Notes under the pieces: model-generated
The model's database searches: none
What the model was told of the DNA's origin: nothing
What the model saw: the letters and a program-made list of their open reading frames with translations, nothing else
Program-made: the position numbers and the translations under genes
Assembly: GCA_028825265.1 (NCBI GenBank)
Contig: JAPKAM010000003.1
Coordinates: 3,547 to 67,546 of the forward strand
DNA: 64,000 nucleotides
Direction of reading: 5' to 3'
From: Planctomycetota bacterium
GTDB lineage: Bacteria > Planctomycetota > UBA8108 > UBA1146
Shown: positions 1-54,414 of the stretch, in pieces
Numbering within the stretch: the stretch's first letter is position 1
How the letters are laid out: each line of letters opens with the position of its first letter

Positions 1-375
1 GAACACTTCACCCATGCCACCGGACCCGATCTTGATGACTTCACTCCAGCGCCCATCGGCAAGGGTCTCTGGTAATGCCTGGTGGTAAATCATCTCGACC
101 GATCCGATGCGAATACGGTCACCCGATCGCAAGGATGTTTCGTCGGTTATTTTCTTCGACGGCAGCCCCTCGGCGGTCAGCCAGGTCCCGTTACTGGAGG
201 CCAGGTCGCGAATCCAGTCGGTACCGGCCCTTTGCTGGATGGATGCATGACTCCGGGAGACTCCAGGCTCCAGGATCCTCAGGGAACAGTCGGGGCCTCT
301 TCCGATGGTGAAAATCCCGCTTTCCGGGAGTTCATGGCGACCCGCGTTCTGGTGGGTGATCTCGATCCAGTTCAT
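1..375 (-). CDS. FHA domain-containing Ser/Thr protein kinase (N-terminal part; gene continues past window start)
   Basis: Manual minus-strand translation from ATG ~375: MNWIEITHQNAGRHELPESGIFTIGRGPDCSLRILEPGVSRSHASIQ...LASSNGTWL (FHA signature GR..SR.HA / SNGT), then ...KIGSGGMGEVF (kinase glycine loop). Absent from the ORF track because the stop lies outside the window. Confidence 0.7.
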   Translation of the reverse strand, partial: MNWIEITHQNAGRHELPESGIFTIGRGPDCSLRILEPGVSRSHASIQQRAGTDWIRDLASSNGTWLTAEGLPSKKITDETSLRSGDRIRIGSVEMIYHQALPETLADGRWSEVIKIGSGGMGEVF

Positions 376-529
376 GGCTCCGATGCTGCCTCGATCCTGC
401 CAACTCTGCAACCAATCCCCGAGAGCCGTGAATGGAGGTCCTTCTGTCCAGCACCTCCACACTCGTGATATTATCCTAGCCGTACCATAGACTGACTCGC
501 TCGCTCGAAATGGATGGATCGAGTCACCG

Positions 530-907
530 TTGAGCCCACATCTTCTGGAGGAGAATCTCGACACGGTTCACCTGGAAAGTTCAATATTGCATCTAATTCT
601 GGTCTCTCACCCTCCTGATTCCGCCGCCTCACTGGCCCGTGGCCTGGTCGAGGAAGGGCTGGCTGCCTGTGTCAACATCTTGCCAGGCTCTCGTTCCATC
701 TATCGCTGGGAGGATAAAACTTGCGACGAGGAAGAGGTGCTGCTGACCATCAAGACGGCCCGGGAACCGATCGAGGAGCTGGTCGAATTGATCGCTAGTC
801 GGCATCCTCACGAGTGCCCTGAAGTGCTCGTGGTACCTGTCACTGCCGGGCTCGATCGATACCTGAAATGGGTAGAGAAGATGAGTCACGGAGAGGAGTC
901 CAGTTGA
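530..907 (+). CDS. cutA: divalent-cation tolerance protein CutA
   Basis: LARGLVEEGLAACVNILPGSRSIYRWEDK...EEEVLLTIKT...HPHECPEVLVVPV matches the CutA1 family pattern. The true start is probably an internal GTG/TTG. Confidence 0.7.
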   Translation: MSPHLLEENLDTVHLESSILHLILVSHPPDSAASLARGLVEEGLAACVNILPGSRSIYRWEDKTCDEEEVLLTIKTAREPIEELVELIASRHPHECPEVLVVPVTAGLDRYLKWVEKMSHGEESS

Positions 908-6271: not shown

Positions 6272-7065
6272 TGCCCCAACTGACCAACCCGTTCGAACCA
6301 CTCTGGCCCGAGATGAGTGAAATCTACCTTCAATCGGGGGTCGTATCCTTGATCGATCACATCGGCTCGAAGAGTGAGCCGATGCAACGCCGGGGCTTGT
6401 TCTTGATGGCCAGTCAGCGCATCTCTGCAGGCCAGAACCTATCGAGATCTCTTTCTGATCTCATCGCAATTTCTCGTGCCGCCATCGATGAGTTTGCGAC
6501 TCAAGCAGAGTCTGAAACGGATAGGGATGAACGGGCGAGGCGCCTCGATGGAGCCAACATCCTCTCCTACAACCTTTCCGCAGACCTGGCTCCATGCTGG
6601 CCTGAAGATCCTGAGCCTCGAACCGTCGACCACTACCAGGAGGGGATTCGCTGTGCAGAGGATTGCCTTCGCTGGCGATCGGAACTGAACAAGGGAGCTG
6701 TGCCGTTCCACATGGCCTGGTGGGCGCTCGGAACTCATCGATGTGGGCTGGCAGACTGGTCCGCTGCCGTTGAAGCCTTCGGAAAATCCCTCGAAGCGGC
6801 TCAAGACAACGCCAGAGAGTCTGCAACACCCGTCGAAGGAGGACCGGATGCATCGTTCCTCATCAATATTTCGACCGGCTGGCTCGAGTTCGCTCGCTGG
6901 CGAGGAGGCGACAAGACCTCCTATGATCGATTCTTGAAAGTGATCGACGCTTTTTCTCAGATCGCCCGGCGTAATGATGACGATCATGCCGATTCAATGC
7001 TCGGGATCCAGCAACTGGAAACCGCAGCATCGCGGCTGCCGACAAGTTCGGCCCCGTGTCAGTGA
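6268..7065 (+). CDS. hypothetical protein
   Basis: 265-aa ORF with start overlapping the upstream stop (ATGA-type coupling), no recognisable motifs, coding-like composition. Confidence 0.5.
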   Translation: MMPQLTNPFEPLWPEMSEIYLQSGVVSLIDHIGSKSEPMQRRGLFLMASQRISAGQNLSRSLSDLIAISRAAIDEFATQAESETDRDERARRLDGANILSYNLSADLAPCWPEDPEPRTVDHYQEGIRCAEDCLRWRSELNKGAVPFHMAWWALGTHRCGLADWSAAVEAFGKSLEAAQDNARESATPVEGGPDASFLINISTGWLEFARWRGGDKTSYDRFLKVIDAFSQIARRNDDDHADSMLGIQQLETAASRLPTSSAPCQ

Positions 7066-7820
7066 GATCCCCTAAAATTCGCCCACTGGAAATCCTTCAC
7101 GACGACCATCAGTTCGTCGCGGTCAACAAACCTGCCGGCTTCAGCACCGTGAGCGAACGGTGGGACCACCAGATTCCCTGTCTGATCGATTTGCTCTGGG
7201 ATCTTTGGAAGCAGAGCGACTCCGATGCACCCAAACCCCATGTGGTACACCGCCTCGACAAACAGACTTCCGGGGTGATCCTGTTCGCCAGAAATGGCTC
7301 CGCTCAATCTCACCTGAGAAAACAGTTCATGGATCGGCGGGTGCAGAAGCGTTACGGCGCACTGGTCACCGACCTTCCGTCCCCGGCCAGTGGCACTAGC
7401 ATCTTTCATGTCGACGAAAATCCCTCTCGCCCAGGATCGATGAAATTTCAGTCCACCGGCAAGGAATGCATCACCGATTACCGGGTGCTGGAGGCTTTCC
7501 GCGACCACTGCTGGGTCGAAGCTTCCCCCAGTACCGGAAGAACCCACCAGATCCGCATGGTGATGGCGAAACTGAAAACCCCCTGTATCTGCGACCCTCT
7601 TTATGGAGATGGCGAGTCACTGTTCCTGTCCTCCTTCAAAAAGAGTTACCGCAGCGGCAGATCGGACGAGGAGCGGCCGCTACTGGGTCGACTCGGGCTC
7701 CATGCCCTTTCCATCTCGGTGCTCCATCCCGTCACAAACCTACCTATGACCATCGAAGCGGGGTTACCCAAGGATCTCAAGGCTACGTTGCGACAGCTGA
7801 GACGCTGGGGCCAAGTCTGA
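7056..7820 (+). CDS. RluA-family pseudouridine synthase
   Basis: HRLDKQTSGVILFA (catalytic Asp motif) and TGRTHQIR motif. Confidence 0.8.
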   Translation: MSVRSPKIRPLEILHDDHQFVAVNKPAGFSTVSERWDHQIPCLIDLLWDLWKQSDSDAPKPHVVHRLDKQTSGVILFARNGSAQSHLRKQFMDRRVQKRYGALVTDLPSPASGTSIFHVDENPSRPGSMKFQSTGKECITDYRVLEAFRDHCWVEASPSTGRTHQIRMVMAKLKTPCICDPLYGDGESLFLSSFKKSYRSGRSDEERPLLGRLGLHALSISVLHPVTNLPMTIEAGLPKDLKATLRQLRRWGQV

Positions 7821-7915
7821 TTCGGCGGGGTCTGAAGCCGGGTCGAATTCGAACGACCTGAATCTGTACCGTTGACCCACTTGCTGCGACAAGTTATTCC
7901 ACAGCCAGGAAATAG

Positions 7916-8539
7916 GTGCTCCCGATGAACCAACCAGCGCCAGGCACCGTCTCCGATTGCGTGATCCTCGCCGGTGGTATGGGCACCCGCATGGGCCAAC
8001 CCAAGGCACTGTTAAAGATCAACGACCGCACCTTGCTGAAGCGTCAGCATGATCAACTCTCCCCCCTGTTTCCCCGCATCTCCGTGGCGCTCAAGGATTC
8101 GAGCCTGCTCGACCCGGTGGAGGCCCTCTGCTGGCACCAGGTCCTGCTGGATCCTCCCGGAAGTCGCTGCTTAGTCGATGTGATCGGTTCCATCATCGAG
8201 CGACTGGCCGTTCCAGTCTTCTTCGCCGCTGTCGACCTTCCTCACCTGAACCAAGCCGTCGTTTCCACCATCTGTTCGCACCACAGTGCCGGAATCTCGG
8301 TGATCCCGGTCGATGATCAGCGGCCCCAACCACTGGCTGCGGTATGGGACCCCTCGGCACTCGAGTTTGTTTCCCCACCCGACGGCGATCTAGCGCTACT
8401 GGCCTGGGTCAAGAGGTGCAGAACCCGGCTTCTTCACTGGCCCGAGCAGTTCTGTTCTGAAGGAGATCCACCAACGACCAGCCCATTCAAGAATCTCAAC
8501 ACCCCCGAGGACCTCGAAACGTGGGAGGCAGACGCTTGA
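7916..8539 (+). CDS. mobA: molybdenum cofactor guanylyltransferase MobA
   Basis: ILAGGMGTRMGQPKALL nucleotide-binding motif, about 200 aa, Moco genes elsewhere in window. Confidence 0.7.
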   Translation: MLPMNQPAPGTVSDCVILAGGMGTRMGQPKALLKINDRTLLKRQHDQLSPLFPRISVALKDSSLLDPVEALCWHQVLLDPPGSRCLVDVIGSIIERLAVPVFFAAVDLPHLNQAVVSTICSHHSAGISVIPVDDQRPQPLAAVWDPSALEFVSPPDGDLALLAWVKRCRTRLLHWPEQFCSEGDPPTTSPFKNLNTPEDLETWEADA

Positions 8540-10233
8540 GTGGTTCCCCCGTGCCGGCTCGAGAACGGCTGATGACCCTCCAACGAAATCTCTCCGACCA
8601 GACTCGTCGAGAGATCGACGAATCAATCATCGACCCCAGTGGAGCCTTGTCACGATGGCGTAAGGTCTACGAGAAGGCCACGGAGGGTCAACTCACTCCC
8701 ATCTCGATCGACCATCTCGCCGAGCAGATCGTCGATTTTGATGTGGTTCACTTCGGCGACTATCACACGCTCAGAGAATCTCAGAAGGGGCCTCTCAGGG
8801 TGATCGAGAAGTGGATCCAGCAGGGGAACAAAGTGGTTCTCGCCACGGAAGCGTTTCACATCGATGCACAACCATTACTCGACCGGTGGTGCCTGCGAGA
8901 AATCGATGACGAGCAGTTACTCAGGGAGTCGGACTGGGAAAATCGATGGGGCTTTCCCTGGAGAAACTACTCGGTACAAATGGAGTTCTTCCGCGAAGCC
9001 GGCTTGCCCATCGTGGCCCTCAACTCAGAACCAGAGGTCGTCGGAAACTCCTTCGCCGCGCGGGAGAACATCGCTGCGATGAGGATTCTTGAGGTGCTTA
9101 GAGAGTTCCCCGATGCGACTCTGGCGGTGATCTTCGGTGATCTCCACGTGGCTCCAGAACACCTACCTCGTAAGATTTCTGAACTGGCAAAGCGTACCGG
9201 GTTCACAGTTCCTCGCCAAACCACCGTGTTCCAGAATCTGGATCGAATTTACTGGCAGCTGGCCAAGACCGGATTGGAGCAAACGGTCACCGCTGTGCGG
9301 ATCGGGAATGATCGCTACTGCATGATCAACACGACTCCACTGGTCAAGCATCAGTCCTACCTCAACTGGCAGTTGAATGAGGTGGAATTGGAAGAGTCGA
9401 GTGGATTCCGCAACCTACCCTCGATTTCATCGACGATCATGTCCGATCAGGTCTGGATGATGATCGAGACCATCTGCGGCTACCTTGAATTGTCCACCGC
9501 TGGACTCGATGGCTTCACGGTTCACACCGGAAGAAACCTCGATCTTCTCGATCGGCTCAGAGATGCCCATTCCCTGGGTGCTGAACAAATGGAACTGGTG
9601 AACACCCAGTTGTCGCGTGAGGAATCGTGTTATCTTCCCGATTCTCAGGTCATCGTCCTGGGTAACCTATCCAGCCGTCATGCCGCAGAAGAAGCGGCAC
9701 ACCACATCAACTCGGTGAGGTGCAACGAAACCGGCACCGCCAGTGATTCGCTCCAACACTTCTACGAGATCGCCATCCGGGAAGCGATCGGCTACATCGG
9801 CACCAAGATCATCGACCACAAACGAACCTGTCTGGATGTGAAGGAACTCGAATCATTGGCCAATGAATTGAGCGGCCACTCTCTCGATTCCCTGCTCACA
9901 GCAACCCTTCAAACAGTCCGTGATTCACTGCGGCACATCGAAACCGAACAGACATGGCTTGAAGGAGATGGGGGAAATAAAACTCCCAACGAACTACCTC
10001 GACGAGATCAGGATATCCGCATCGGCACTGCCCACCTCATCGGTTACCGATTGGGAGAGAAGATCTACAACTGCCTGGTTACAGGAAAGATCAAGCGATC
10101 GAAGGTGCGGGAACTGTTCGAAACACCGTTACGCCACCCTGTCGATGCGAGCCAATCGACGTGGCTCGACTGGGCCCGACGTTGTTACGAGGCGGATTCC
10201 TCTTCTTCGTCGAGCAACTCCAGCCGAGGATAG
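8521..10233 (+). CDS. hypothetical protein, possible ChaN/Tiki (TraB/GumN) superfamily haem-binding-like domain
   Basis: VVHFGDYHTLRESQ...VVLATEAFH resembles the ChaN GEQHD...H pattern. Weak assignment. The 3' end overlaps the metG 3' end convergently. Confidence 0.5.
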   Translation: MGGRRLSGSPVPARERLMTLQRNLSDQTRREIDESIIDPSGALSRWRKVYEKATEGQLTPISIDHLAEQIVDFDVVHFGDYHTLRESQKGPLRVIEKWIQQGNKVVLATEAFHIDAQPLLDRWCLREIDDEQLLRESDWENRWGFPWRNYSVQMEFFREAGLPIVALNSEPEVVGNSFAARENIAAMRILEVLREFPDATLAVIFGDLHVAPEHLPRKISELAKRTGFTVPRQTTVFQNLDRIYWQLAKTGLEQTVTAVRIGNDRYCMINTTPLVKHQSYLNWQLNEVELEESSGFRNLPSISSTIMSDQVWMMIETICGYLELSTAGLDGFTVHTGRNLDLLDRLRDAHSLGAEQMELVNTQLSREESCYLPDSQVIVLGNLSSRHAAEEAAHHINSVRCNETGTASDSLQHFYEIAIREAIGYIGTKIIDHKRTCLDVKELESLANELSGHSLDSLLTATLQTVRDSLRHIETEQTWLEGDGGNKTPNELPRRDQDIRIGTAHLIGYRLGEKIYNCLVTGKIKRSKVRELFETPLRHPVDASQSTWLDWARRCYEADSSSSSSNSSRG

Positions 10234-11858
10234 AGGATCCCCTGAGGAAAGAGAGTTGCACCCGCTTGTAACTGACACACTTTCCCCAGTTCCATCACCG
10301 ATTCCTGGGGACTGGCTGCGGCCTCTGAGAATGTTGCGGCCATCTTGCAAGCACTGACCGGCAAGAAGGGGAGCAGCATGACCGAAACCGCATGCACCAG
10401 TTCAAGCAGTGCCGCCAGATCGCCTCCGCAACCCTCCGGATCGGTCTTGCGACTCTTCCACGGCGCTGCGGCATCGAAAATTCGATTGCCATGACGAGCC
10501 AGGGTCACTACTCGATCGAGTGCTTCTCTGAATCGTTGCCTCTCGAGAGATCTCGACCATTCCTCCCGAGCAGAGGAAACCACTCGCAGAACTTCATCGT
10601 GGAAGGCTGAACTCTCCGCACCCGCAGGAACCTTGGTATCGAAGTTCTTGGCGGTAAAGGTCAAAAGTCGGTGGGCAAGATTACCCACCACATCTGACAG
10701 TTCGTCATTATTTCTCTGGATGAACTCTTCCCAGGTAAAGGAGGAGTCCTTGCCCTCGGGAGCGATCGCTGTCAGGTAGTAGCGAACCCGATCCGCATCG
10801 AATTTCTCAAGGATCTGTTCGGCAGTGACCCCGACCCCTTTCGACTTGGAAAACTTCTCACCCTTGAAGTTGAGATACTCATTGGCAGGAATTGACGAAG
10901 GCAATCTGAAGTCACCATGCCCCAACAACATCGAAGGCCAGATGACTGCATGAAAGATGATGTTGTCCTTGCCGAGAAAGTGGACGATTTCCACATCTTC
11001 ATCGGACCACCAGGATCGCCATTCATCTTCCTGCCCCCTCTCCTTGAACATCTCCCGAGTGAAAGAGATGTAACCGATGGGCGCATCGAACCAGACATAC
11101 AGAACCTTGTCCTGCGCCTCCTTGAGAGGCACCGGCACTCCCCATTCTAGATCCCTGGTGATACTTCTGGCGGGTAAGCCCTCGCGAATGATTCCACGGG
11201 AGAAGTTTCGTACATTGTCACGCCAGCCTTCACGGCTCTCGAGCCACTCTTCAAGCCTCTCCTCGTACCGATCGAGACGAAAGAACCAGTGCCTGGTCGA
11301 GGTCAGTTGAGGACTGGAGCCACAGGTGACACAACGGGGCTCAATCAGCAGATCCTGTTCAAAGGCGCCGCCACACGCATCACATTGATCTCCTCGAGCA
11401 TCGTTTGCGCCACACAGCGGGCAGACCCCCTCGACATAGCGATCGGGGAGAAACATGTCGCAATCGGCACAACGATACTGATCTGTGACCTTCTCCTCGA
11501 TGTCTCCACGCTCGCGGATCTTGTGGAAGAACTCTTGCGCGAGTTCCTGGTGACCTTCACAAGTAGAAGTTCCGCTGTAATGGTCAAAGGTAATACCCAG
11601 TGATGAAAATCCTCGCTCCTGGATGGCGCGATACCTTTTCACGACCTCTTGTGGAGTGCTGTTTTCTTTCTGCGCAGAGATCGTGATGGGAACTCCATGA
11701 TCATCACTGCCACAGATGAAAATCGTCTCGATTCCGACCAAGCGTAGGTACCTATTGTAGGTATCCGCAGGTAGGTAGACCCCCGCGATATGTCCCAGAT
11801 GCGGATGATTATTTGCGTATGGCAACGCCGCGGTGATGAGCACCCTTCGCGAAGTCAT
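10185..11858 (-). CDS. metG: methionine--tRNA ligase (short form without C-terminal tRNA-binding domain)
   Basis: ALPYANNHPHLGHIAG (HIGH), KFSKSKG (KMSKS), Zn knuckle CPLCGANDARGDQCDACG. Confidence 0.9.
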   Translation of the reverse strand: MTSRRVLITAALPYANNHPHLGHIAGVYLPADTYNRYLRLVGIETIFICGSDDHGVPITISAQKENSTPQEVVKRYRAIQERGFSSLGITFDHYSGTSTCEGHQELAQEFFHKIRERGDIEEKVTDQYRCADCDMFLPDRYVEGVCPLCGANDARGDQCDACGGAFEQDLLIEPRCVTCGSSPQLTSTRHWFFRLDRYEERLEEWLESREGWRDNVRNFSRGIIREGLPARSITRDLEWGVPVPLKEAQDKVLYVWFDAPIGYISFTREMFKERGQEDEWRSWWSDEDVEIVHFLGKDNIIFHAVIWPSMLLGHGDFRLPSSIPANEYLNFKGEKFSKSKGVGVTAEQILEKFDADRVRYYLTAIAPEGKDSSFTWEEFIQRNNDELSDVVGNLAHRLLTFTAKNFDTKVPAGAESSAFHDEVLRVVSSAREEWSRSLERQRFREALDRVVTLARHGNRIFDAAAPWKSRKTDPEGCGGDLAALLELVHAVSVMLLPFLPVSACKMAATFSEAAASPQESVMELGKVCQLQAGATLFPQGILYPRLELLDEEEESAS

Positions 11859-34525: not shown

Positions 34526-35821
34526 TCATGAAGTGATGATGGAACATGACAACTGATCGGGGATCAGGTGCTCCTGTAGCCGCTCTTCAACCTCTTTGGT
34601 ACTGATCTCTGCCAGCAGATCGACCACCTCGAAGGGGTCTCCGTCGAGGAAGCGAGTGCCGCAATAACTTCCAGCGATGTGCTCGAGCGAGTTGAATGCA
34701 CGCAGCAGGTATCCTATGGCAGAACGCCGCTGGCGTTCAATATCGGTAGGGTCGATACCCACCTTGCGAATCTGGCCGACCTCTTCACGAATGACTTCGA
34801 TCAGGCGATCCGGATCTGACGAATCTCCGCCAGTTGCGGAATGACCCACGTCCGAATGAATCTGGTATGAAGTCGAGAAGGAATCGTCGATCAAATCCTG
34901 GCGGTACAACATCTCGAACAAGGGGCCACTCTGTCCGAAGACGCATTCGAGCATCACTTCAGTGACCAGTTCCTTGCGCATCAATTCCCGACCCTGAATC
35001 CCCGGGTGAATATCCTTCCACCCCAATAACACCTTCGATCGGCCCACCTGCATCTGCTGGTGTACCAGCTCCTTGGCCGGGCCTTCAGGTTCCTCGGTGA
35101 GAATTTTCTCCACTGCCGGAGCCGGTCCAAGATCCTGTTCGGATAGCAACCGTCCTGCGGCCTCGAAGAAGGTCTCCTGATCCTCATCGGCGACGGCCAA
35201 CAGGATCATGTTTGATGGGTGGTAAAAGGTACTCCAACATCGATCCAACAGCTGTGGCGTGATCCCAGCGATGGTCTGCTCTGTTCCTGCGATGTCCTTG
35301 GCCACTGGATGGTTCTTGTAGAGGCCCGCCAACAAGTTGAAGTACACCCTCCAGCCAGGATTGTCGGCGTACATCCGAATCTCCTGGCCAATGATGCCCT
35401 TCTCCTTCTCGACATTTTCTGCAGTGAAATGGGGTTGCTGGACAAACCGCACCAGGTGATCGAGGCATGGAAAGAAACCATCGACACAGGAAAACAGATA
35501 GGTGGTGCCAACGAAGCTGGTGAACGCATTGGCACTGGCACCCAAGCGGCTGAATTGAACAAACGCATCTTCTTTGGGGCCCTCGAACATCTTGTGTTCC
35601 AGGAAGTGAGCGATTCCATCGGGCAACCGTTCTTCGGAGCCACCGTCGATTCGAAAACGATCATCGACGCTGCCGAAGCGAGTCGAAAAACATGCATATC
35701 GACGCAGGTATCCCGGCTTGCGACAAAAAGCAACGGTCGCACCACTGATATGAGTCCGCTCCACGACGCGCTCGCCGAGGGTTGCATTCTCGAGGATGAC
35801 TTCCTCGCCGATCCAGGTCAC
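34526..35821 (-). CDS. M16-family zinc peptidase (pitrilysin-like, catalytic subunit)
   Basis: HFLEHKMFEG inverted zinc motif HxxEH. Confidence 0.8.
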   Translation of the reverse strand: MTWIGEEVILENATLGERVVERTHISGATVAFCRKPGYLRRYACFSTRFGSVDDRFRIDGGSEERLPDGIAHFLEHKMFEGPKEDAFVQFSRLGASANAFTSFVGTTYLFSCVDGFFPCLDHLVRFVQQPHFTAENVEKEKGIIGQEIRMYADNPGWRVYFNLLAGLYKNHPVAKDIAGTEQTIAGITPQLLDRCWSTFYHPSNMILLAVADEDQETFFEAAGRLLSEQDLGPAPAVEKILTEEPEGPAKELVHQQMQVGRSKVLLGWKDIHPGIQGRELMRKELVTEVMLECVFGQSGPLFEMLYRQDLIDDSFSTSYQIHSDVGHSATGGDSSDPDRLIEVIREEVGQIRKVGIDPTDIERQRRSAIGYLLRAFNSLEHIAGSYCGTRFLDGDPFEVVDLLAEISTKEVEERLQEHLIPDQLSCSIITS

Positions 35822-37116
35822 TGGGCCTCCTCCGGGGAAAGCAGGTAGATCAAGTCCGTATCGATTCGTTTCGCCGCTTCGATGACGCTCTCTCGAGTCA
35901 CCCTTGCCACTCGTTCGCGCAATCCCTCGATGGTCGGGTCTCGCCCCACCAGTCGCGAGACCAGATCAAACTCTGCCAGGGAGGAGGGCGAATCCTGGGT
36001 CATACTCAATCTTGAATCCCACGCATCGAGGGTCATCTGGAACTCATCGTCACTAAACTCGCCTCGCTTCACCACATCGATCTGCTCTAGGATGCTCTCT
36101 TGAGTCTGGATTGCGGTATCTCCGTCGATCCCAGCGTTGACCAGCATCAAACCAGAACTGCCATCGAAAAGGGAATTGACCGAGTAACAGAGACTCTGCT
36201 TCTCTCTCACCTGGGTGAAGAGACGCGAATGCGGAAAGCCGCCGATCACCCCGCTGGCGATCATCATCGACTCATGAAGGGGGTCGCCATGTCCGGTAGA
36301 AGTTCGAAACGAGATCACCAGATTGGCCTGCTGTCCCTGGAAGTGTTCCTCCAGTTTACGGACTTCCCCGGCACCCTTGCGCGGATAACGATCTGCAAGA
36401 GTCGCCGCTTCCTGACCGTGCCCGCCAAACAGGGGAAGCAACACTTCAGCCAGCGAATCTGACCGTGCTTCACCACTGAAATGTACGTACATCGGCGCAC
36501 TCTCGATGGTCTGTTGCCAGTCTGCGGTGACCGACTCCGGTGTCACATGCTCCAGCGACTCGATGGAGCCGTACTCATGGAAACGCCACGGCTCGTTCTG
36601 GCAAGTCTCCTCGATACAGCGCTGCATCGCCCAGGATCGCTTGTCGTCGAAGCGCCCCTCGATGCTTCTACGATGCTGGGACATCTCGGAACTGACGGTC
36701 TCTTCAGCAAACTGACCATCGACCAGATGCGGCTGCAGGATCACCTCGCAAATAAACTCGACGGCTTCGGCGAGAACTTGTTCTGTTCCAGGGAGGCGCG
36801 AATCCTCAGGGAATTCGGCGTTGATCGTGACGATCTGCCGCTGCCCTGCCCGGTCCACCGATCCGCCGATCCCAAGACCCCACAGTTCTTCACTTCTTCG
36901 ACTGATTTCCCTGAGCGAGGGAAAGGAGCGGGAGCCTCTCAGCAAGCAGGCGGGAACCAGGCAATTGCGAGCCGCTTGGGGCCCCATATCGTGGACCCAG
37001 GAGATCCTCAGGCGGCTCGTCTTCCTTCTCGCTTCCTTGCGGATGTGGAGCGACGCACCGGGAGCGATCTCACTCGTTTCGAAACCTGACCATTGGGATG
37101 AGTTTGCTCGGGTCAA
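35818..37116 (-). CDS. M16-family peptidase partner subunit (non-catalytic-like)
   Basis: M16 C-terminal-domain-like architecture, no HxxEH, 4-nt overlap with the downstream M16 gene. Confidence 0.7.
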   Translation of the reverse strand: MTRANSSQWSGFETSEIAPGASLHIRKEARRKTSRLRISWVHDMGPQAARNCLVPACLLRGSRSFPSLREISRRSEELWGLGIGGSVDRAGQRQIVTINAEFPEDSRLPGTEQVLAEAVEFICEVILQPHLVDGQFAEETVSSEMSQHRRSIEGRFDDKRSWAMQRCIEETCQNEPWRFHEYGSIESLEHVTPESVTADWQQTIESAPMYVHFSGEARSDSLAEVLLPLFGGHGQEAATLADRYPRKGAGEVRKLEEHFQGQQANLVISFRTSTGHGDPLHESMMIASGVIGGFPHSRLFTQVREKQSLCYSVNSLFDGSSGLMLVNAGIDGDTAIQTQESILEQIDVVKRGEFSDDEFQMTLDAWDSRLSMTQDSPSSLAEFDLVSRLVGRDPTIEGLRERVARVTRESVIEAAKRIDTDLIYLLSPEEAQ

Positions 37117-46231: not shown

Positions 46232-46371
46232 GCTAGGAAACAACCCTTGACCAATGCATGCCGACTTTTCCCCCGGGGCGCGGGGGAAAGTGGTTCGGTT
46301 CCCGCCGACATTTTTCTTGGGAATGCCCCCTTTTTCTTGGGCCGATATCACTCAGCCCGGAGAGGATCCCG

Positions 46372-48441
46372 ATGCGATTTCTGTGCCCCACTTTCCCTCT
46401 TTCTGGGCCATTACTGCGTAAGGCCGCCAGTTCCTGGATGCTGATGCTGCTCCTCTGTGCCCCTCTTCAGGGCCAGAATGGCACCCTTCAGGTGGAAGTG
46501 AATCTCTGCGGTGCCAATTCTAATGGCAGCGATGTCGCGGTCAACACCAGTGATAACTCGGTCTGGACCATCGACAGTTCTAGCGGCAAAATTTGCGTGT
46601 TTTCGACCTCCAGCAATCCTCCGGGCCTCGCCCTCTCCAACATGATCGACCACCCCATCGGCGCCGCCGCGGCCCCGCTGTTTCAGCCGCAGTGCTCCGG
46701 ATTGGCCTACAACGAGAGTTCCAACACCTTCTGGATCCTCAATTCGACCTCCCTCGAACTACTGGAGATGGACACCTCTGGGGCTACCGTCAGTCTGCCG
46801 GTCCCCTTCGTCATCTCCGGATCCGCCTCGGGCCTCGCCTATGACTCCCTATCTGGAACCCTCTGGACCCGCGATACCGTCAACCAGCAAATGGTCGAAA
46901 TCGATCCGGCCACCGGCAACATCCTCTCGACCCTCGAGATTCCAGGATCCGAGTTTCGATACGGTTCGGGTCTGACCTACCGCTCTTCGACCACCGGCAT
47001 CGGGTACCTCGATTTCACCTACGGAACGGCCTTTGATGCGGGAATCGCTGAGGTCCGTTCCCTGGCCATCGGCACCGGAGGACTCGAATGCTCAGGAATC
47101 GATCTCGGTGCCAACGTCGACAATTCGCTGCTGGGAATCTGCTACAACGCTTCGGGCTCGAGTTTGATGGCGGTCACCACCACTCACTTGCTGCAGATCA
47201 ATGCCACTCAACCGGCGATTTACCCCCCTGCCGATCTGGTCTGCTTGGCTGACGGCGAAGGTGCCGTGAATCTCGAGTGGCGCAACTGTGGTCCCGGCGG
47301 CGGAGGTCTCTACACCCTTCTGAGGATCACCAGGAATGGTGCCATCGTCGACACCCTGCCCGGCTCTGCCACCTCGTGGGCCGATCTGTCCGCTCCGCTG
47401 GGACAAACGCATCAGTACCAGGTACAGGGCATCGTTGGCAATATCATCGAAACTTCCAGCTGTAGCGTGATTCATGGCCCCGGTGGACTGGTCAACTCGG
47501 TCAGTTTCGTCGGAGATCGACCGAGAGATCTGGCCTACGATGACGAGATGGACGACCTCTACGTCACTGAATCTTACAGCGGCGTGATTCATGTGCTCAG
47601 TTCCGACCTGAGCCTCAAACGCATCATCGATACCGGATTACCCAATCTACGCGGCATCGGATACAACCCGATCCTCGATGTGTTGCTGGTGAGCCGTGCG
47701 GGTAGTGGTCTGGTCACCTTCGTCGACCCCCTGACCGGCTCCCCACTCAGTTCATTTCCGTCAAACTCCACCTCCATCGATGCCATCAGCTACGACTCTG
47801 CAGCCGATGATTGGCTTCTGCTCGACAGCGCGTCGAGTCAAGTGTCGATCCGCAGGATGGAAGCGCTCGATGGCGCCGAGGGGAATCCACTCGGGATCAT
47901 CATTCCACCGAGTACCTCAGGGTTGCTGCTGGGTGGAGGCGTCTCCTCCTTCAAGGACGGGTCCCTCCTCAGCGGAGTGGAAAACCTGGGGGCCATCACC
48001 AGCGCCAGTCAGTTCTCCGGATTCGGATTCCCACTCAACTTCGATCTCCCGTTGTCGGAGATGGGGAACTCCCCTGACCTTCTCAGCAATGCAGTGACCG
48101 GCTTCGAGATCGTCGGAAGCACCCTGGTGGTCGCCGGCCAGGCCACCAACACCCTCTTCCAACTGCTGATCGTCAGTGACGGACCCGATTTCATCCGAGG
48201 AGATTCCGACTCCAGCGGCTCGGTCAACCTGGCAGACGCCATCTTCACCGCCACATGGATCTATGCAGGAGGCACCGCTCCCGACTGCAGAGACTCCTGC
48301 GATGCCAACGACGATGGCCAGTTGGACATTTCTGATCCCATCTTTACATTGCTACACCTGTTTACCGGAACTGCGGCTCCTCCAGCCCCCTATCCCACTT
48401 CTGGCCCAGATCCCACCTTTCTCGACCAGATTGATTGTTAA
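46372..48441 (+). CDS. secreted beta-propeller protein with C-terminal dockerin-like module (array member 1)
   Basis: Signal peptide MRFLCPTFPLSGPLLRKAASSWMLMLLLCAPLQG, repeated GLAYD/GLTYR-type blades, C-terminal FIRGDSDSSGSVNLADAI...CDANDDGQLDISDPIF...PYPTSGPDPT. RBS GGAGAGG before ATG 46372. Confidence 0.8.
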   Translation: MRFLCPTFPLSGPLLRKAASSWMLMLLLCAPLQGQNGTLQVEVNLCGANSNGSDVAVNTSDNSVWTIDSSSGKICVFSTSSNPPGLALSNMIDHPIGAAAAPLFQPQCSGLAYNESSNTFWILNSTSLELLEMDTSGATVSLPVPFVISGSASGLAYDSLSGTLWTRDTVNQQMVEIDPATGNILSTLEIPGSEFRYGSGLTYRSSTTGIGYLDFTYGTAFDAGIAEVRSLAIGTGGLECSGIDLGANVDNSLLGICYNASGSSLMAVTTTHLLQINATQPAIYPPADLVCLADGEGAVNLEWRNCGPGGGGLYTLLRITRNGAIVDTLPGSATSWADLSAPLGQTHQYQVQGIVGNIIETSSCSVIHGPGGLVNSVSFVGDRPRDLAYDDEMDDLYVTESYSGVIHVLSSDLSLKRIIDTGLPNLRGIGYNPILDVLLVSRAGSGLVTFVDPLTGSPLSSFPSNSTSIDAISYDSAADDWLLLDSASSQVSIRRMEALDGAEGNPLGIIIPPSTSGLLLGGGVSSFKDGSLLSGVENLGAITSASQFSGFGFPLNFDLPLSEMGNSPDLLSNAVTGFEIVGSTLVVAGQATNTLFQLLIVSDGPDFIRGDSDSSGSVNLADAIFTATWIYAGGTAPDCRDSCDANDDGQLDISDPIFTLLHLFTGTAAPPAPYPTSGPDPTFLDQIDC

Positions 48442-48620
48442 TCTGTCTGGATTGACAAACTCTCATTTGTTAATAAACTAGGATTACCCTTCGATCGAAG
48501 GGACCATTCCGATCCTGCCCCGCAGCAGGCCCGGGGGGGAAGAGTATTCATACCGGCCTATCCGGTATGAAGGGGATGAATTGCTTGCGGGGGGGCCTCG
48601 AGATGAGGCCTGTGGAGGAG

Positions 48621-50465
48621 ATGAAGATGAATACCTGTTTCAGACAGGTGTTCGTGGCTGTGTGGACGGTTCTGATCCTGACCCATTCGGTGCAGGCTCA
48701 GCAATCTCTCACCATCACGGACACCACCACCCAGGGCCTCGCGCCCTTTTCTACAACCGTAGAACTGACCAGTGACGCAGGAACTCAAGGCTATGTTCTA
48801 GCCGTGGGTTTCGACAACACCTTGTTGAACCCGACGGCAGCAACAGTGGAAGGAACAGATGTGGCCTCGATCGGCGCAGAACTGGTAGTCGCCGAGATCC
48901 TATCCGAGGGGCTCACCCTTGGCGTGGTTCTCGATACCGAAACTCCGTTCGAGGGTCAAGAGATCCCGGCCGGCGTCGGTACCAGTGTCGCCTTGCTCAG
49001 TTTCACGCCGACGACCTTATCTTCCACCTCGTTCACAACCCAGCTGCAGTTCCAGGATGGAGTGTTCAACTCTCCACCGCTGGACAACATCATCGTCCAG
49101 GCGGGACTCTCCGTCGATGCCACCGATGGCCTGATCCTGATCGATGGCACCGTGACGATCTCTCCTCCGCCACCCGACCAGTTGCGGGTCGAGGATGGCA
49201 CAGTACTCGCCGACGGCCAGTCGAGCAGCGAGACTCGGATCCTGCTCTCCAATAGCTCAGGTCCCGCACAGGGTTTCGTGGTCGCAGTGGCCCATGGACC
49301 TGACCAACTGACACTTCAGGAGATTTCTCTGGAGGGCACGATCACCCAATCGGTCGGTGTCGAGTTCGAGGTCATGAACCTGTACTCCGACGGTGGAACC
49401 GTAGGAGTGGTTCTCGATTTCACGCCTCCCTTTGATGGCCAGGTGATCCCGCAGGGAATCGACCAACACATTGCATCTTATCGCTACAGTTGTAACGAGA
49501 TCATCTACCTGCCCGAATCCGATCTGGTCACCGCGTTGACCCCGATCAATGGCTTCATCGGAACTCCTCCCCTCGACAACGTGATCGTCGTCGGCGGACT
49601 TTCGCTGTTCCCTTCACTCGAAGCGGGCTCGATGACCTGCATCGCGATTAATCCGCCGCCGGTGCACAACACAGTCATGACCGCGAAGGTCGAATTTGAT
49701 CTAGACTCCGGCAACTACGCATTCCACGGACAAACGGGAACTCTCAGTTTCTGCTACTCCGATCCCGATAACGAGATCCAGGGTATGACGATCACCGTCT
49801 GTTACGACTGTGATCTGACCCTCGAGGAAGGCACTTTCACTCTCGAGGGATCGATCGTGGAAATGGTCGGAGCCGAATACATCAACCACCAGGTCGATGA
49901 CGATTGCTCGGATGGAGAGACCGGAGAGTTGATCCTCGCAATCCTGCTCGACGCATTGCCTCCATTCGAGGGGCAGACGCTTCCTCCCACCTCAGAGGAA
50001 CTGCTGGTCGGAAGCATCCAGATCACCGTGGATGAGACCGCTGAATGCGACCTCGCCCAGGAGATCAACTTCTGTGACGACATCAACGGTAACGGTAGCG
50101 TGTTCCTCTACAACAACGTGGTCATCGACTACCTCTCGGTCCAGGATTTCCAACGTAATGGCACCAGCGTCGTCGTGGTTCCCCAGGAGATCTTCCAGCG
50201 GGGCGACTGCAACAGCGATGACAAGGTCGATCTAGCAGATGCCGCCACCACCATTGCAACTCAGTTCTCCGGGCTTCCGATCCTCTGTTCCGACGCCTGC
50301 GACTCCAATGATGACGGCGTCATCAATCTGGCCGACGCAGTGTACGGAATGAATTGGCTCTTCAAGTTCGGACCGACGCCACCCGAGCCTGGCCCGTTTG
50401 ACAATGGTCCTGATCCTACCGAGGACCAACTGCCAGTTTGTGATAGTGACGATACCGGCTGTTAA
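48621..50465 (+). CDS. secreted protein with three cohesin-like modules and C-terminal dockerin-like module (array member 2)
   Basis: Signal peptide MKMNTCFRQVFVAVWTVLILTHSVQA. Modules contain G.QGYVLAVGFDNTLL / AQGFVVAVAHGPDQLTL (cohesin-like G..f.l.YD..L pattern). C-terminal FQRGDCNSDDKVDLADA...CDSNDDGVINLADAV...PEPGPFDNGPDPT. RBS GGAGGAG before ATG ~48621. Confidence 0.8.
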   Translation: MKMNTCFRQVFVAVWTVLILTHSVQAQQSLTITDTTTQGLAPFSTTVELTSDAGTQGYVLAVGFDNTLLNPTAATVEGTDVASIGAELVVAEILSEGLTLGVVLDTETPFEGQEIPAGVGTSVALLSFTPTTLSSTSFTTQLQFQDGVFNSPPLDNIIVQAGLSVDATDGLILIDGTVTISPPPPDQLRVEDGTVLADGQSSSETRILLSNSSGPAQGFVVAVAHGPDQLTLQEISLEGTITQSVGVEFEVMNLYSDGGTVGVVLDFTPPFDGQVIPQGIDQHIASYRYSCNEIIYLPESDLVTALTPINGFIGTPPLDNVIVVGGLSLFPSLEAGSMTCIAINPPPVHNTVMTAKVEFDLDSGNYAFHGQTGTLSFCYSDPDNEIQGMTITVCYDCDLTLEEGTFTLEGSIVEMVGAEYINHQVDDDCSDGETGELILAILLDALPPFEGQTLPPTSEELLVGSIQITVDETAECDLAQEINFCDDINGNGSVFLYNNVVIDYLSVQDFQRNGTSVVVVPQEIFQRGDCNSDDKVDLADAATTIATQFSGLPILCSDACDSNDDGVINLADAVYGMNWLFKFGPTPPEPGPFDNGPDPTEDQLPVCDSDDTGC

Positions 50466-50568
50466 TGGCCCAATTTTAGAACAGTACTCCGAACTTGGAT
50501 CACACCAGGTCCGCAATTTAGAAGATCAGAGCAGCCCCCCGATGCTGTTCAGTGAAAGGAAGTGTTTC

Positions 50569-51843
50569 ATGCATACTCTACCAATCAGGCAGGTTTCTGC
50601 TGCCGTGATGCTGACCCTGGTGGTCTTCATCCACAGCAGTCTCTTTGGACAGAATCCAAATTTCCTCATGCATATGGACAGTGCAGATGTCCTCGGTGGA
50701 TCAACATTCACTACAACTGCAAAACTGGATGTCTTGCAGCCGACAGAAATTCAGGGCTGGAGTTTCAGTCTCTGTTCCAATCCTGCTGATCTGACCCCGT
50801 TGAGCGCAACACTCGGGGTCGACACCATGACAGTAAAAGGTGGATCTCCTCCTGACTTCGATACCACCCTTCTCTCCGCAGATGCAGTGTCGAATGGAGT
50901 CGTGATCTGCTTCACTGGCTGCTCTTCTCTGAGCGTGACGACGAATTTCGAACTTCTCAATGTGAACTACCAGGTCGAGGGATCCGTGGGACACACCACA
51001 TCCATCAACTACTGCACCGCAGGGACTCCAGGAGTCAGCACCCTAGTGGTGATCGCTGGCAACAGCGTGCCGCCAGTCGCAACGGGTGCAGACTTCACGG
51101 TCGTCAGTCCTAACTTCATGAAATTCGGTAACGGAACCGGAATCGCAGCTCAGAGCGCCTCGATGCCAGTGCTCGTTTCTACCATTCGCCCTCTCGATGG
51201 GCTGTCGATCGCTGGAGCCTACGACGGGGCGCTACTGTCCCTGTCAGGAGTTTCGGCTTCCGGGATCGCGAGCGGTGCGGACTTCATTTCAACTTCAGCA
51301 AACCTGGCTTCAGGTGAAATCGCTGCGGGTCTGATCATGGCCTTCAACACTTCCGTGGATATCCCGGTGGGTGATGATCAGGAGATCATGAGAATAGACT
51401 TCGCTGTCATCGGAGATCTCACCGGCCAAATGGAACCTGTTATTTCTCCAGTGAATTTCGTGCCCAGTGCCGGCAATCCGCCGATCCAAAACCTGATTGT
51501 GGATGGGAACTACCAGGAGACTCCGAATCTGGTCGATGGGGTCATCACCATTGTGAACTTCAACCCGTTCGTCAGGGGTGACTGTAATAGTGATGGAGGT
51601 CTCGTCAACATCGCTGACGGAATCGCCGTGCTTCAGTACCTGTTCCAGGGTGGTGCCACACCTTCCTGCCTCGATGGCTGCGACCTCGACGACAATGGGA
51701 TGATTGGTGTGGGCGACGCCGTCGGTGTCTTCAACTACCAGTTTGCCGGTGGTTCTCCTCCGGCTGCTCCGTTCCCGAATGCAGGAATCGATCCGACCAC
51801 AGGTGACGGAATCGGCTGTGACGGAGATGCGGACACCCAGTAG
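50569..51843 (+). CDS. secreted protein with two cohesin-like modules and dockerin-like module (array member 3)
   Basis: Signal peptide MHTLPIRQVSAAVMLTLVVFIHSSLFG. C-terminal FVRGDCNSDGGLVNIADGIAVLQYLFQGG...CDLDDNGMIGVGDAV. Confidence 0.8.
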   Translation: MHTLPIRQVSAAVMLTLVVFIHSSLFGQNPNFLMHMDSADVLGGSTFTTTAKLDVLQPTEIQGWSFSLCSNPADLTPLSATLGVDTMTVKGGSPPDFDTTLLSADAVSNGVVICFTGCSSLSVTTNFELLNVNYQVEGSVGHTTSINYCTAGTPGVSTLVVIAGNSVPPVATGADFTVVSPNFMKFGNGTGIAAQSASMPVLVSTIRPLDGLSIAGAYDGALLSLSGVSASGIASGADFISTSANLASGEIAAGLIMAFNTSVDIPVGDDQEIMRIDFAVIGDLTGQMEPVISPVNFVPSAGNPPIQNLIVDGNYQETPNLVDGVITIVNFNPFVRGDCNSDGGLVNIADGIAVLQYLFQGGATPSCLDGCDLDDNGMIGVGDAVGVFNYQFAGGSPPAAPFPNAGIDPTTGDGIGCDGDADTQ

Positions 51844-51912
51844 AGTGCTCCTCGATGGCAGACTGACCGTCGGACCATCGATAAAATTGAACAACGAATT
51901 GAACACCGACTT

Positions 51913-51951
51913 GGACTCCGGAGGCACTTCCCCTCCGGAGTCCTATTTTTT
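51913..51951 (+). terminator. rho-independent terminator between array members 3 and 4
   Basis: gactccggagg-cacttcc-cctccggagtc, a perfect 11-bp GC-rich stem followed by ctattttttcc. Confidence 0.65.
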
Positions 51952-52097
51952 CCGGGTATTCGATTCCTACTGGCAAATCCCGGGCCCGCCAACACCGTTG
52001 TCAGATGTGGATCAACGGCGAGGTGGTGATAGGATAGAAGCATGTTGAAATCTGGTGATGTTGCCAGATCCCTCTTCCAGAACAGGAGAGATTACAA

Positions 52098-53483
52098 ATG
52101 CTGCGCTTCCTCCCCCTTCTGTTCGCCATCCCATTGGTTTTAAGTTTCTGCGTGCCGACCACCTGTCGGGGTGCCGATGTGTTCACCATCGGGAATGTCA
52201 GCGGCAATGCTGGTGATACCAATCTGCCCTGCTTCATTCTCGCGACTCACGACCAGGCCATCGAAGGATTCGCCATCGGGCTCCAGTTCGATCCGTCGAA
52301 ATTGACCCTGACTTCGGCCGACTTCCAAAACACAGTGGTCTCGGCCCTGCTCGCCGGAGCGGATCCGGATTTTGCGGGCTTCACCATCGACAACACCTCA
52401 GGGACTTTTCTGGCGGGTGTGATCTTTGGTTATGGAAGCCTGACCGTTCCACCCTCGTCACTCCCGTCCTCGCCCACCGATCAAAACGCCCTTCTGAGGT
52501 TGGTCTTCACCATCGATCCTGGCTCCCTACCACAGGTGATCCCGGTGCAGTTCGCCGACGGACTGGGCGATCCCCCGGTGCTCAATGTGCTCTCCGCTGG
52601 TGGTGCCTCGGTGAGTCCTGACCTGATCGATGGATCGGTCACCATCAACAACCTGCATAGGTTCTACTTTGGAGGAATCAGCGCTTCACCCGGTAGCTCT
52701 GTCAGTGCCACGGTGCGCTACGATCACGCCGATGAGATTCAGGGATTCCAGATTTCCCTCTCCTATGACAACACCATCCTGACTCTTCAGACGCCCTCCA
52801 CCGCCTACGATTGGTACTCGGGATTGAACCTCGATTCAGCGATGCCAGGAGGCCCTGGTGCCACTGGAGGTGTTGAGTTGTTCTACCCAGCGACCGATCC
52901 GAATGTGGCCCCTGGAGTGGGGCTGGCAACCTTCTCTGCTATCTTTGATTTCCTGGGCCCGTACGACGGCCAGTTGTTACCAGCCGGCAACAATCAAACT
53001 CTGCTGCGACTGGATTTTGACACCCTCGCCGATCCTGCTCTGCTGGGAACCACCACGGAGATCATCTTCGATGACTCTTACAATCTCCCGTCCTGCCCCC
53101 CCAATGACCCCAACTGCAGCGCCGGTCCAGCAGTCAACTACGTCATCTACGACGGACTCTCGATCATCCCGATCCTTGAGAATGGTGTCATCGAGTTCGT
53201 CAATCAACCTGGATTCAAGCGTGGGAACACCAACAGTGATTCCGGAGTCGATCTGGCGGATGCCCTCTTCATCGTCAACTGGCTCTTCGCCGCCGGGCAG
53301 GTTCCCACCTGCATGGATTCTGCGGACACCAACGACGATGGCGGAGTCGACATTTCCGACACGATTTACCTGCTGAATTACCTGTTCGTCAGTGGCCCCC
53401 CACCGTCGGCTCCAGGACCGAACTCCTGTGGCGTGGACCCCAGTTCAGACCTGCTCGAGTGCGTGCTCACAAGTGGCTGCTAA
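52098..53483 (+). CDS. secreted protein with two cohesin-like modules and dockerin-like module (array member 4)
   Basis: Signal peptide MLRFLPLLFAIPLVLSFCVPTTCRG. EIQGFQISLSYDNTILTL cohesin-like core. C-terminal FKRGNTNSDSGVDLADALFIVNWLF...DTNDDGGVDISDTIYLLNYLF...PGPNSCGVDPS. RBS AGGAGAG. Confidence 0.85.
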   Translation: MLRFLPLLFAIPLVLSFCVPTTCRGADVFTIGNVSGNAGDTNLPCFILATHDQAIEGFAIGLQFDPSKLTLTSADFQNTVVSALLAGADPDFAGFTIDNTSGTFLAGVIFGYGSLTVPPSSLPSSPTDQNALLRLVFTIDPGSLPQVIPVQFADGLGDPPVLNVLSAGGASVSPDLIDGSVTINNLHRFYFGGISASPGSSVSATVRYDHADEIQGFQISLSYDNTILTLQTPSTAYDWYSGLNLDSAMPGGPGATGGVELFYPATDPNVAPGVGLATFSAIFDFLGPYDGQLLPAGNNQTLLRLDFDTLADPALLGTTTEIIFDDSYNLPSCPPNDPNCSAGPAVNYVIYDGLSIIPILENGVIEFVNQPGFKRGNTNSDSGVDLADALFIVNWLFAAGQVPTCMDSADTNDDGGVDISDTIYLLNYLFVSGPPPSAPGPNSCGVDPSSDLLECVLTSGC

Positions 53484-53580
53484 GTTTTCACTACCGATCA
53501 CTGAATAAACATCCCTGAAGCTTCTGACCTTCATCCCAGGTCGATGCTCTCCCCCTACCTCTCCCCCCCGAGGAGGAAAC

Positions 53581-54414
53581 ATGCGTAATTTTTTCATCCC
53601 TGCGGTCGTCGCCGCATCCATTTACTTCTCAGCGACTGTCTCTGGACAGAACCTGATTCATGTCGACGACAACACCGCGACTCCTGGATCCTCGGTCGAG
53701 GTCACCGTCCGACTCGATAACTCCGCAGCGGTGCAGGGTTATCAGTGCGCCCTTAGCTGGGATTCAAACATCTTCACCTTCGATCAGGCCAGCACCTCTG
53801 GCCTCGACATTGAAGACCAGTTGGATCCCTTCCAGGTCGAGTTCTTCACCTCGATCAATGATGATCAATTCGCACCCGGGATCGGCTGGGCCGCCTGTGC
53901 AGCCATCTTTGATTTCTCACCCCCTTTTGGGGGCCAGACCTTGGCTCCAGGAATCAACATTTCCATCGTTCGATTCCAGTTTCAGACCGCTGCGGATAAC
54001 GCTCTGGTCGGCAGTTGTTCAGCCATCACTCCGGTCAACAACATGGGACATCCTGTGATCCAGAACATCCTGACCATCGACGGGATCTCCAACAGTCCAG
54101 ACCTGGAAGCGGGCAACATCTGCTTCACCGATTCACCACCGTTCATCCGTGGCGATTCCAATGATGACGGAAGCTTGAATCTCGCAGATGCGATCTTCCT
54201 GATTGGTTACTACTTCGCGGGCGGGAGCCCACCCCCATGCCGAGCCTCAGCGAACTCGAACGGTGATGCAGTCGTGGATATCGGTGATGTCATCTTCGTG
54301 ATCAATCACCAGTTCCTGGCAGGCCCGCAGCCTGGAGCGCCCTACCCATCCTGTGGAGCGGATCCTGCTGGCGAAGCGGGAATTGGCTGTGAGCTCTTCA
54401 GTCACTGCCCCTGA
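53581..54414 (+). CDS. secreted protein with one cohesin-like module and dockerin-like module (array member 5)
   Basis: Signal peptide MRNFFIPAVVAASIYFSATVSG. GSSVEVTVRLDNSAAVQGYQCALSWDSNIFTF cohesin-like core. C-terminal FIRGDSNDDGSLNLADAIFLIGYYF...NSNGDAVVDIGDVIFVINHQF...PYPSCGADPA. RBS GAGGAGG. Confidence 0.85.
   Translation: MRNFFIPAVVAASIYFSATVSGQNLIHVDDNTATPGSSVEVTVRLDNSAAVQGYQCALSWDSNIFTFDQASTSGLDIEDQLDPFQVEFFTSINDDQFAPGIGWAACAAIFDFSPPFGGQTLAPGINISIVRFQFQTAADNALVGSCSAITPVNNMGHPVIQNILTIDGISNSPDLEAGNICFTDSPPFIRGDSNDDGSLNLADAIFLIGYYFAGGSPPPCRASANSNGDAVVDIGDVIFVINHQFLAGPQPGAPYPSCGADPAGEAGIGCELFSHCP

Follow-up and report, generated by a model that had tools for sequence, protein, structure and literature searches.

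A conserved five-gene array of cohesin and dockerin proteins in marine Planctomycetota, a candidate non-cellulosomal assembly system

Described cohesin-dockerin systems and the planctomycetal array

Few protein-protein connectors are as tight as cohesin-dockerin pairs, which are much used in synthetic biology, and nearly all of those characterised come from cellulolytic Firmicutes. Here we describe an array of five consecutive plus-strand genes (46372-54414) in a 64-kb window, the whole stretch of DNA analysed (64,000 nucleotides of contig JAPKAM010000003.1, Planctomycetota assembly GCA_028825265.1, lineage UBA1146), each of which encodes a signal peptide and a C-terminal dockerin tail. Four of the proteins (members 2-5) are pure connectors with three, two, two and one cohesins, each ending in one dockerin. 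We consider it somewhat probable that the locus is a non-cellulosomal cohesin-dockerin assembly system whose members clip into one complex.

The closest described proteins in architecture are the adaptor scaffoldins (ScaA/ScaB of Acetivibrio cellulolyticus and Ruminococcus flavefaciens). Compared to them, the array lacks enzymes, carbohydrate-binding modules (CBM), X-module, SLH, sortase anchor and Pro/Thr linkers, and its dockerin has a Pro-rich, putatively disulfide-bearing C-terminal extension; its host is a marine planctomycete, shown to be diderm by a kdtA gene nearby, and its flanks are housekeeping genes. In usage, the nearest cases are Archaeoglobus fulgidus (PDB 2xdh) and the glycosidase/toxin complexes of Clostridium perfringens (2vo8, 2w1n, 2o4e), where single modules sit on enzymes or isolated proteins, whereas the array is a five-gene, near-pure connector set with a fixed cohesin count of 0/3/2/2/1. 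By phylum, the closest is the "planctosome" of freshwater Nemodlikiaceae, a non-cellulosomal cohesin/dockerin complex hypothesised from genomes alone (Andrei et al., 2019, ISME J, PMC6461901). In that model a giant protein anchored by an LTD bears P-domains and a cohesin, an adaptor combines dockerin, HYR and cohesin, and M12B/M14 peptidases carry dockerin tags (PMC6461901). The likeness is that relatives of the cassette described here also sit on peptidases (Peptidase_S8, see below). In contrast to the planctosome, the array has no enzyme, shows another architecture and belongs to a different lineage, a marine one, and none of the planctosome domains (LTD, P-domain, HYR, M12B, M14) was found in the array or its flanks by Pfam/NCBIfam scans. 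A direct precedent for the proposed self-assembly is Amy4 of R. bromii, which holds cohesin and dockerin in one polypeptide and self-aggregates, its dockerin binding its own cohesin (PMC4611034). Members 2-5 likewise carry both modules; Amy4, however, is an amylase of a Gram-positive gut bacterium, while the four array proteins have no catalytic part and their self or cross binding is putative.

Our literature search found no paper describing this array. Non-cellulosomal cohesins and dockerins have been surveyed (Peer et al., 2009, as cited in PMC6461901) and such systems in Planctomycetes have already been discussed in print. The identity of the modules is also partly captured by automatic annotation, member 5 being identical to an NCBI "cohesin domain-containing protein" of a Planctomycetota metagenome-assembled genome (MAG). 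What is new here is a conserved, enzyme-free connector kit of fixed valency. Pfam and NCBIfam scans of the five proteins returned only cohesin, dockerin and, for member 1, weak propeller-type matches, with no carbohydrate-active enzyme (CAZyme) and no CBM; NCBIfam gave nothing meaningful for any of the five. The label "cellulosome-style", proposed in a sequence-only reading of this DNA, is therefore apt for the connector modules but not beyond them, as CAZyme, CBM, SLH and sortase anchor are all missing. The same reading had noticed no glycoside hydrolase nearby, and this holds for ~13 kb on either side of the array, where the neighbours are all housekeeping genes.

Gene starts and module architecture

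The longest open reading frames (ORFs) of members 1-5 on the plus strand (46258-48441, 48567-50465, 50398-51843, 52098-53483 and 53581-54414) agree in position with the five neighbouring same-strand genes first read from the sequence. For members 1-3 the true starts probably lie downstream, at 46372 (M39), 48627 (M21) and 50569 (M58), because a GGAG-type ribosome-binding site (RBS) stands before each of these ATG codons, a hydrophobic signal sequence follows, and the signal peptides are conserved. The individual RBSs claimed earlier are present; that preceding M39 of member 1 is GGAGAGG, and the NCBI call for this protein (689 aa) equals a start at M39. The longest ORF of member 3 begins at a TTG, which adds window positions 50398-50568 and a 68-nt overlap with the end of member 2. 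This overlap is an artefact of choosing the first start codon, the conserved start being the ATG at 50569.

Hidden Markov models (HMMs) of the repeat and of the tail were built from the window's own modules and scanned against the 64-kb window. The features of the array are as follows.

46372-48441, plus strand: member 1, 689 aa from M39 (ORF, RBS, NCBI length, profile matches)
48175-48438, plus strand: dockerin of member 1, own-HMM match with E 2.8e-40, loops DSDSSGSVNLAD and DANDDGQLDISD
48627-50465, plus strand: member 2, ~612 aa from M21, with signal peptide, three cohesins and dockerin
48696-49166, 49167-49664 and 49665-50192, plus strand: three tandem cohesins of member 2, own-HMM domain E 1e-49 to 1e-51
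50178-50462, plus strand: dockerin of member 2 (own HMM), mean p-distance 0.166, slowest-evolving module of the array
50569-51843, plus strand: member 3, ~424 aa from M58, with signal peptide, two cohesins and dockerin
50650-51093 and 51094-51573 (cohesins), 51559-51840 (dockerin), plus strand: modules of member 3 (own HMMs)
51913-51953, plus strand: intrinsic terminator in the gap between members 3 and 4, 12-bp stem with 9 G-C pairs, then a T-run
52098-53483, plus strand: member 4, 461 aa, with signal peptide, two cohesins and dockerin
52173-52655 and 52656-53213 (cohesins), 53205-53480 (dockerin), plus strand: modules of member 4
53581-54414, plus strand: member 5, 277 aa, with signal peptide, one cohesin and dockerin
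53647-54144 (cohesin), 54136-54411 (dockerin), plus strand: modules of member 5

In the scan, a module of 155-190 aa appeared 0/3/2/2/1 times in members 1-5 and a ~90 aa tail once in each (domain E-values 1e-38 to 1e-55), exactly the module counts read earlier, with no further cohesin or dockerin match elsewhere in the 64-kb window. The five proteins find each other by BLASTP with pairwise E-values of 1e-12 to 1e-57, and by sequence comparison their paralogy is far above chance. Mutual homology extends to all eight repeat modules (BLASTP, own HMMs). The modules are closely packed: the cohesins of member 2 (48696-50192) abut without linkers and the cohesin-dockerin junction measures ~5 residues, modules abutting within 3-5 residues.

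A joint profile of the eight repeats searched against the PDB matched cohesins nearly exclusively (best 3l8q, E 3e-5), and Pfam Cohesin (PF00963) reached 26.4 bits in member 4 and 24.1 bits in member 5, the cut-off being 24.1. The AlphaFold2 model of member 4, built on a 118-sequence alignment, has a mean predicted local distance difference test (pLDDT) of 92.3 and a predicted template modelling score (pTM) of 0.77. For member 5, modelled from 17 orthologues, the dockerin has a pLDDT <45 and only the cohesin part was used; its best 47 PDB matches in Foldseek are all cohesins. The modules show the nine-stranded beta-sandwich (jelly-roll) of cohesins and, on these profile and model grounds, all eight have a true cohesin fold. 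Identity between the eight is 17-40%; each is nevertheless conserved across species. Within the member 5 cohesin, the stretch GWAACAAIFDFSPPF (window 53900-53960, residues ~100-118) is invariant or nearly so in 17/17 member 5 orthologues, whose overall identity falls as low as 42%, and its FDFxPPFxGQ core, a family-specific motif, is found in most cohesins of the wider family.

The profile of the five tails found dockerins in the PDB (CelS 2mte, E 1.2e-5), with weaker matches to EF-hand proteins such as polcalcin. The tails consist of two loop-helix repeats with D/N at positions 1, 3, 5 and 9 and D at position 12 in eight of the ten loops, a canonical 12-residue pattern that confirms the two calcium-binding loops and helices per tail described earlier. 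They show the dockerin fold, and profile and model evidence together indicate that all five are true dockerins with mostly intact calcium sites. Profiles, Foldseek and the AlphaFold2 model thus agree on the initial cohesin/dockerin identification, and none placed the modules in an unrelated fold. Identity between the five dockerins is 36-49%, each retaining its own signature residues on the helices across species.

In contrast to clostridial dockerins, the linker between the tail repeats carries an invariant P-x-C, and the repeats are followed by a C-terminal extension, PxPxPxxGxDPTxDxLxC, which is kept far outside this clade. Tail cysteines follow two patterns, GDC...xCD in members 2 and 3 and four cysteines in members 4 and 5. 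DSSP places beta-bridges of the member 4 model at the invariant F373, at C405 and C455, and next to C444. As these bridges fall at the invariant Phe and at or beside the tail cysteines, the model suggests that the tails are a disulfide-stapled version of the dockerin N-to-C "clasp", described for other dockerins (PMC3821032).

Member 1 is built differently, with a signal peptide, beta-propeller-type repeats, a central Fn3-like segment, further propeller repeats and the C-terminal dockerin. The NHL profile scores above its cut-off (28-31 bits) in 10/14 member 1 orthologues, and the body matches YncE (3vgz, E 1.7e-5) and, at weaker E-values, nidogen and regucalcin, so the beta-propeller assigned earlier is backed only by weak but consistent profile matches. 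The central WRNCGPG segment matched a fibronectin-type scaffold, though not significantly (Centyrin 7t87_C, E 0.91). Homologues of member 1 are confined to this clade and every one is labelled "hypothetical".

Each of the five members opens with a hydrophobic segment carrying an AxA-like cleavage site that orthologue alignments show to be conserved, which upholds the signal peptide first noticed on each. Lipoprotein anchoring was considered and rejected, the signal-peptide Cys of members 1 and 4 being not conserved and the -1 residue unfit for a lipobox. Because the Cys in the hydrophobic segment is not conserved, we take the five members to be signal peptidase I substrates.

Conservation in the marine clade and the wider cassette family

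Orthologues were gathered by looking up contigs and by scanning a single genome for each species. Member 5 orthologues occur in ~26 species-level genomes, all from uncultured marine Planctomycetota (UBA1146, TMED53, MCMED-G47, NAT2 and others). Every locus spanning the array (~20 distinct species, duplicates removed) carries these five genes in unchanged order, with exactly 0/3/2/2/1 cohesins and one dockerin per member, and shares common flanks, nadD and asnS upstream and peroxiredoxin, hydrolase, metK, kdtA and secA downstream. Four more loci end at a contig border and their retained members keep the same order. Locus L001 (7018-8214) has member 3 broken into three ORFs, whereas L002 and L003 (the latter from the sample of L001) have it whole; the split is probably an assembly frameshift and not a pseudogene. 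Two contigs carry other phylum labels: L010 (QNYK01000107.1, "Bacillota bacterium") has the full planctomycete array with its flanks and L028 (JAFMMO010000096.1, "Proteobacteria bacterium") a member 5 orthologue. In both cases the MAG contig was probably mis-binned or mislabelled.

The transcriptional layout is conserved as well. The strong terminator noticed between members 3 and 4 was found as the hairpin and T-run at 51913-51943, and a hairpin with T-run occupies the same site 3' of member 3 in every locus spanning the gap. The stems vary in sequence between loci yet stay complementary through compensating changes, which argues that the two-unit layout is conserved; the earlier claim of at least two transcription units is accordingly sustained across species, with members 1-3 in one and members 4-5 in the other.

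Each module is a 1:1 orthologue throughout the clade. Over 19 species, mean p-distances are lowest in the dockerins (0.17-0.34) and the third cohesin of member 2 (0.20), and the body of member 1 diverges most (0.43). Among whole proteins, member 2 is the most conserved (60-89% identity between species). Judged from these comparisons, the 13 modules are old, distinct paralogues in an architecture fixed across the whole clade. This divergence pattern would be expected of interaction modules with distinct, maintained specificities, without being proof of them.

Beyond the clade, the member 5 profile collected 41,648 representative clusters at E <= 1e-3 and 733 at E <= 1e-30, with named sources nearly all from Planctomycetota. 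Cohesin plus dockerin forms a fixed cassette in hundreds of relatives, and the didomain often forms, as a single block, the very C-terminus of proteins 400-1700 aa long. Pfam on 54 large relatives gave Dockerin_1 in 47 (E <= 1e-5), Cohesin in 13, Peptidase_S8 in six, TIG in four and FG-GAP_3 in four, together with Big_5, fn3 and PG_binding_1, and no glycoside hydrolase family. One more distant Planctomycetota MAG (L030) encodes an 11xTIG/IPT protein ending in the cohesin-dockerin cassette (2-3601) and a 1862-aa FG-GAP/Ig/Laminin_G protein ending in a dockerin tail (5684-11269); by their domain content these are adhesin-like cargo. Five other relatives (P0025, P0039, P0040, P0049 and P0060, ~1100 aa) contain 9-13 tandem dockerin-like stretches, unlike classical cellulosomes. 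Because relatives carry subtilase, TIG, FG-GAP and Ig domains and no glycoside hydrolase, the domain assignments mark these connectors as a general feature of planctomycetal exoproteins, with proteolytic or adhesin-like and not cellulolytic cargo. So large a family, so often found on subtilases and on proteins resembling adhesins, suggests that Planctomycetota use cohesin-dockerin assembly as a general way of organising exoproteins, one that has hardly been studied.

Possible assemblies and competing explanations

The assembly that we favour would work as follows. The two transcription units would yield five Sec-exported proteins, three from the first (members 1-3) and two from the second (members 4-5), whose calcium-loaded dockerins would plug into cohesins of other members, possibly also of proteins encoded elsewhere. 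The product would be a structural complex of the cell envelope, defined, branched and made of several subunits, with members 2-5 as framework and the propeller protein (member 1) as terminal ligand-binding subunit. Since eight cohesins outnumber five dockerins, some sockets would stay free and could serve as spare places for other dockerin-tagged proteins. In one conceivable wiring, purely speculative, members 3-5 would insert their dockerins into the three cohesins of member 2 and offer their own five cohesins to the propeller protein, encoded by the first gene of the first unit; the highly conserved dockerin of member 2 would attach to an anchor encoded elsewhere. We infer the pairing of these dockerins with these cohesins, the wiring and the location from sequence and by analogy.

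In favour of such an assembly stand the cohesin and dockerin folds, the calcium ligands, the export signals, the fixed valency, the strong constraint on the connectors and the Amy4 precedent. Several observations weigh against it. Pfam Dockerin_1 (PF00404) scores 17.7 and 18.2 bits in members 4 and 5, below its cut-off of 22.9, with zero match in members 1-3, and Cohesin PF00963 has zero match in members 2 and 3; the Pfam checks suggested with the sequence-only reading were thus divided, Cohesin being at or above cut-off in members 4 and 5 and the remainder falling short. The tail helices are uncharged and hydrophobic at the recognition positions, with an N-[YWH]-x-F motif, whereas clostridial dockerins have charged recognition residues at the corresponding helix positions. 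In the member 3 dockerin, loop 1 is longer by one inserted residue and loop 2 has a Gly at position 9, deviations which are themselves kept across species. Dockerin-like modules with no known cohesin partner occur in many organisms. Given the ~5-residue junction and the high pTM, the dockerin may be packed rigidly against its own cohesin instead of being free to dock. Mirror-tree residual correlations between dockerin and cohesin divergence in the 19 species, calculated with the shared background removed to find matching pairs, range from -0.59 to 0.61 without clear pattern and have no valid null model. No anchoring module (SLH, sortase signal) was found by the Pfam/NCBIfam scan of the five proteins, and a Sec signal peptide alone carries a protein only to the periplasm, so that an extracellular position does not follow from it and the complex could be periplasmic.

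It is possible, if unlikely, that the five are instead independent paralogous envelope or surface proteins with no pairing among members, in which the cohesins would serve as spacers of a rigid beta-sandwich type, while the disulfide-stapled tail with its bound calcium would stabilise the protein or attach it to something other than a cohesin, for instance polysaccharide, peptidoglycan or an outer-membrane protein. The lack of linkers and the confidently predicted rigid multi-domain arrangement (pTM 0.77) would suit spacers, and the same tail sits on many cohesin-free proteins and appears in phyla with a dockerin-only match (L031-L033); the 9-13 tandem dockerin-like repeats of some relatives also suggest a general calcium-binding structural role. 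Spacers do not, however, account for the joint presence of cohesin and dockerin in all four connector proteins, and as a fixed cassette in hundreds of relatives, nor for the slower evolution of the dockerins than of spacer-like parts; eight distinct cohesin types, each kept clade-wide, would also be unneeded for mere spacing.

The assembly-system reading has a stronger form, in which the array would be a self-contained kit of eight sockets and five plugs with fixed stoichiometry, forming a purely structural envelope architecture such as a fibre, a lattice or a dendritic stalk with the propeller protein at its tip. We regard this version as decidedly doubtful. If true, this would be a new use of cohesin-dockerin pairs, with a bacterial surface structure in place of an enzyme scaffold built on them and on nothing else, and the kit would be a possible molecular basis of an uncharacterised planctomycetal surface appendage.

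A further explanation, which we hold to be improbable, takes the C-terminal cohesin-dockerin didomain for a single self-binding or co-folded unit that many Planctomycetota exoproteins share as a secretion, sorting or anchoring cassette, in a role like that of other C-terminal sorting domains, the array then consisting of cargo-less paralogues. The uninterrupted C-terminal match on unrelated N-terminal parts (Peptidase_S8, TIG, FG-GAP, Big_5) looks like such a cassette, as do the essentially linker-free passage from cohesin to dockerin and the Pro-rich, Cys-bearing extension conserved far beyond the clade. The dockerin tail nevertheless stands without a cohesin in member 1 and many relatives, the extra cohesins of members 2-4 adjoin no dockerin, and there is neither a terminal transmembrane helix nor a known sorting motif. 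We know of no such sorting system in Planctomycetota.

It is very improbable that the array belongs to a true cellulosome, or to another complex that breaks down polysaccharides, whose dockerin-bearing glycoside hydrolases would be encoded at other places in the genome. The three surplus cohesins (8 vs 5) could receive such enzymes, but this reading was rejected, given that the five proteins and the ~13 kb around them have no CAZyme, CBM, SLH or sortase signal, that the catalytic domain in the 54 large relatives is a subtilase and not a glycoside hydrolase, and that the host lineage is an aerobic-type marine planctomycete and not a cellulolytic Firmicute.

Returning to the assembly system, its eight cohesins and five dockerins are anciently diverged (17-49% identity) and each has been retained through the history of the clade. 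Should pairing be specific, they would make a ready-made set of orthogonal connectors, and the locus would encode a rare complex of connectors only, which could explain part of the planctomycetal cell envelope.

Two adjacent M16-family (insulinase-like) peptidase genes lie ~9 kb upstream of the array, on the minus strand (window 34526-37116), and neither gave a dockerin or cohesin match in the own-HMM scan of the window. In two loci of the clade an extra minus-strand ORF ~9.5 kb downstream of the array (L008, 19850-20299; L010, 20430-20828), which runs into the end of the examined locus, ends in cohesin plus dockerin, and because of these ORFs we conclude that cohesin-dockerin proteins of the clade also occur outside the five-gene array. 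A relative on a 9.18-Mb contig (L034) is a stand-alone gene with no array around it.

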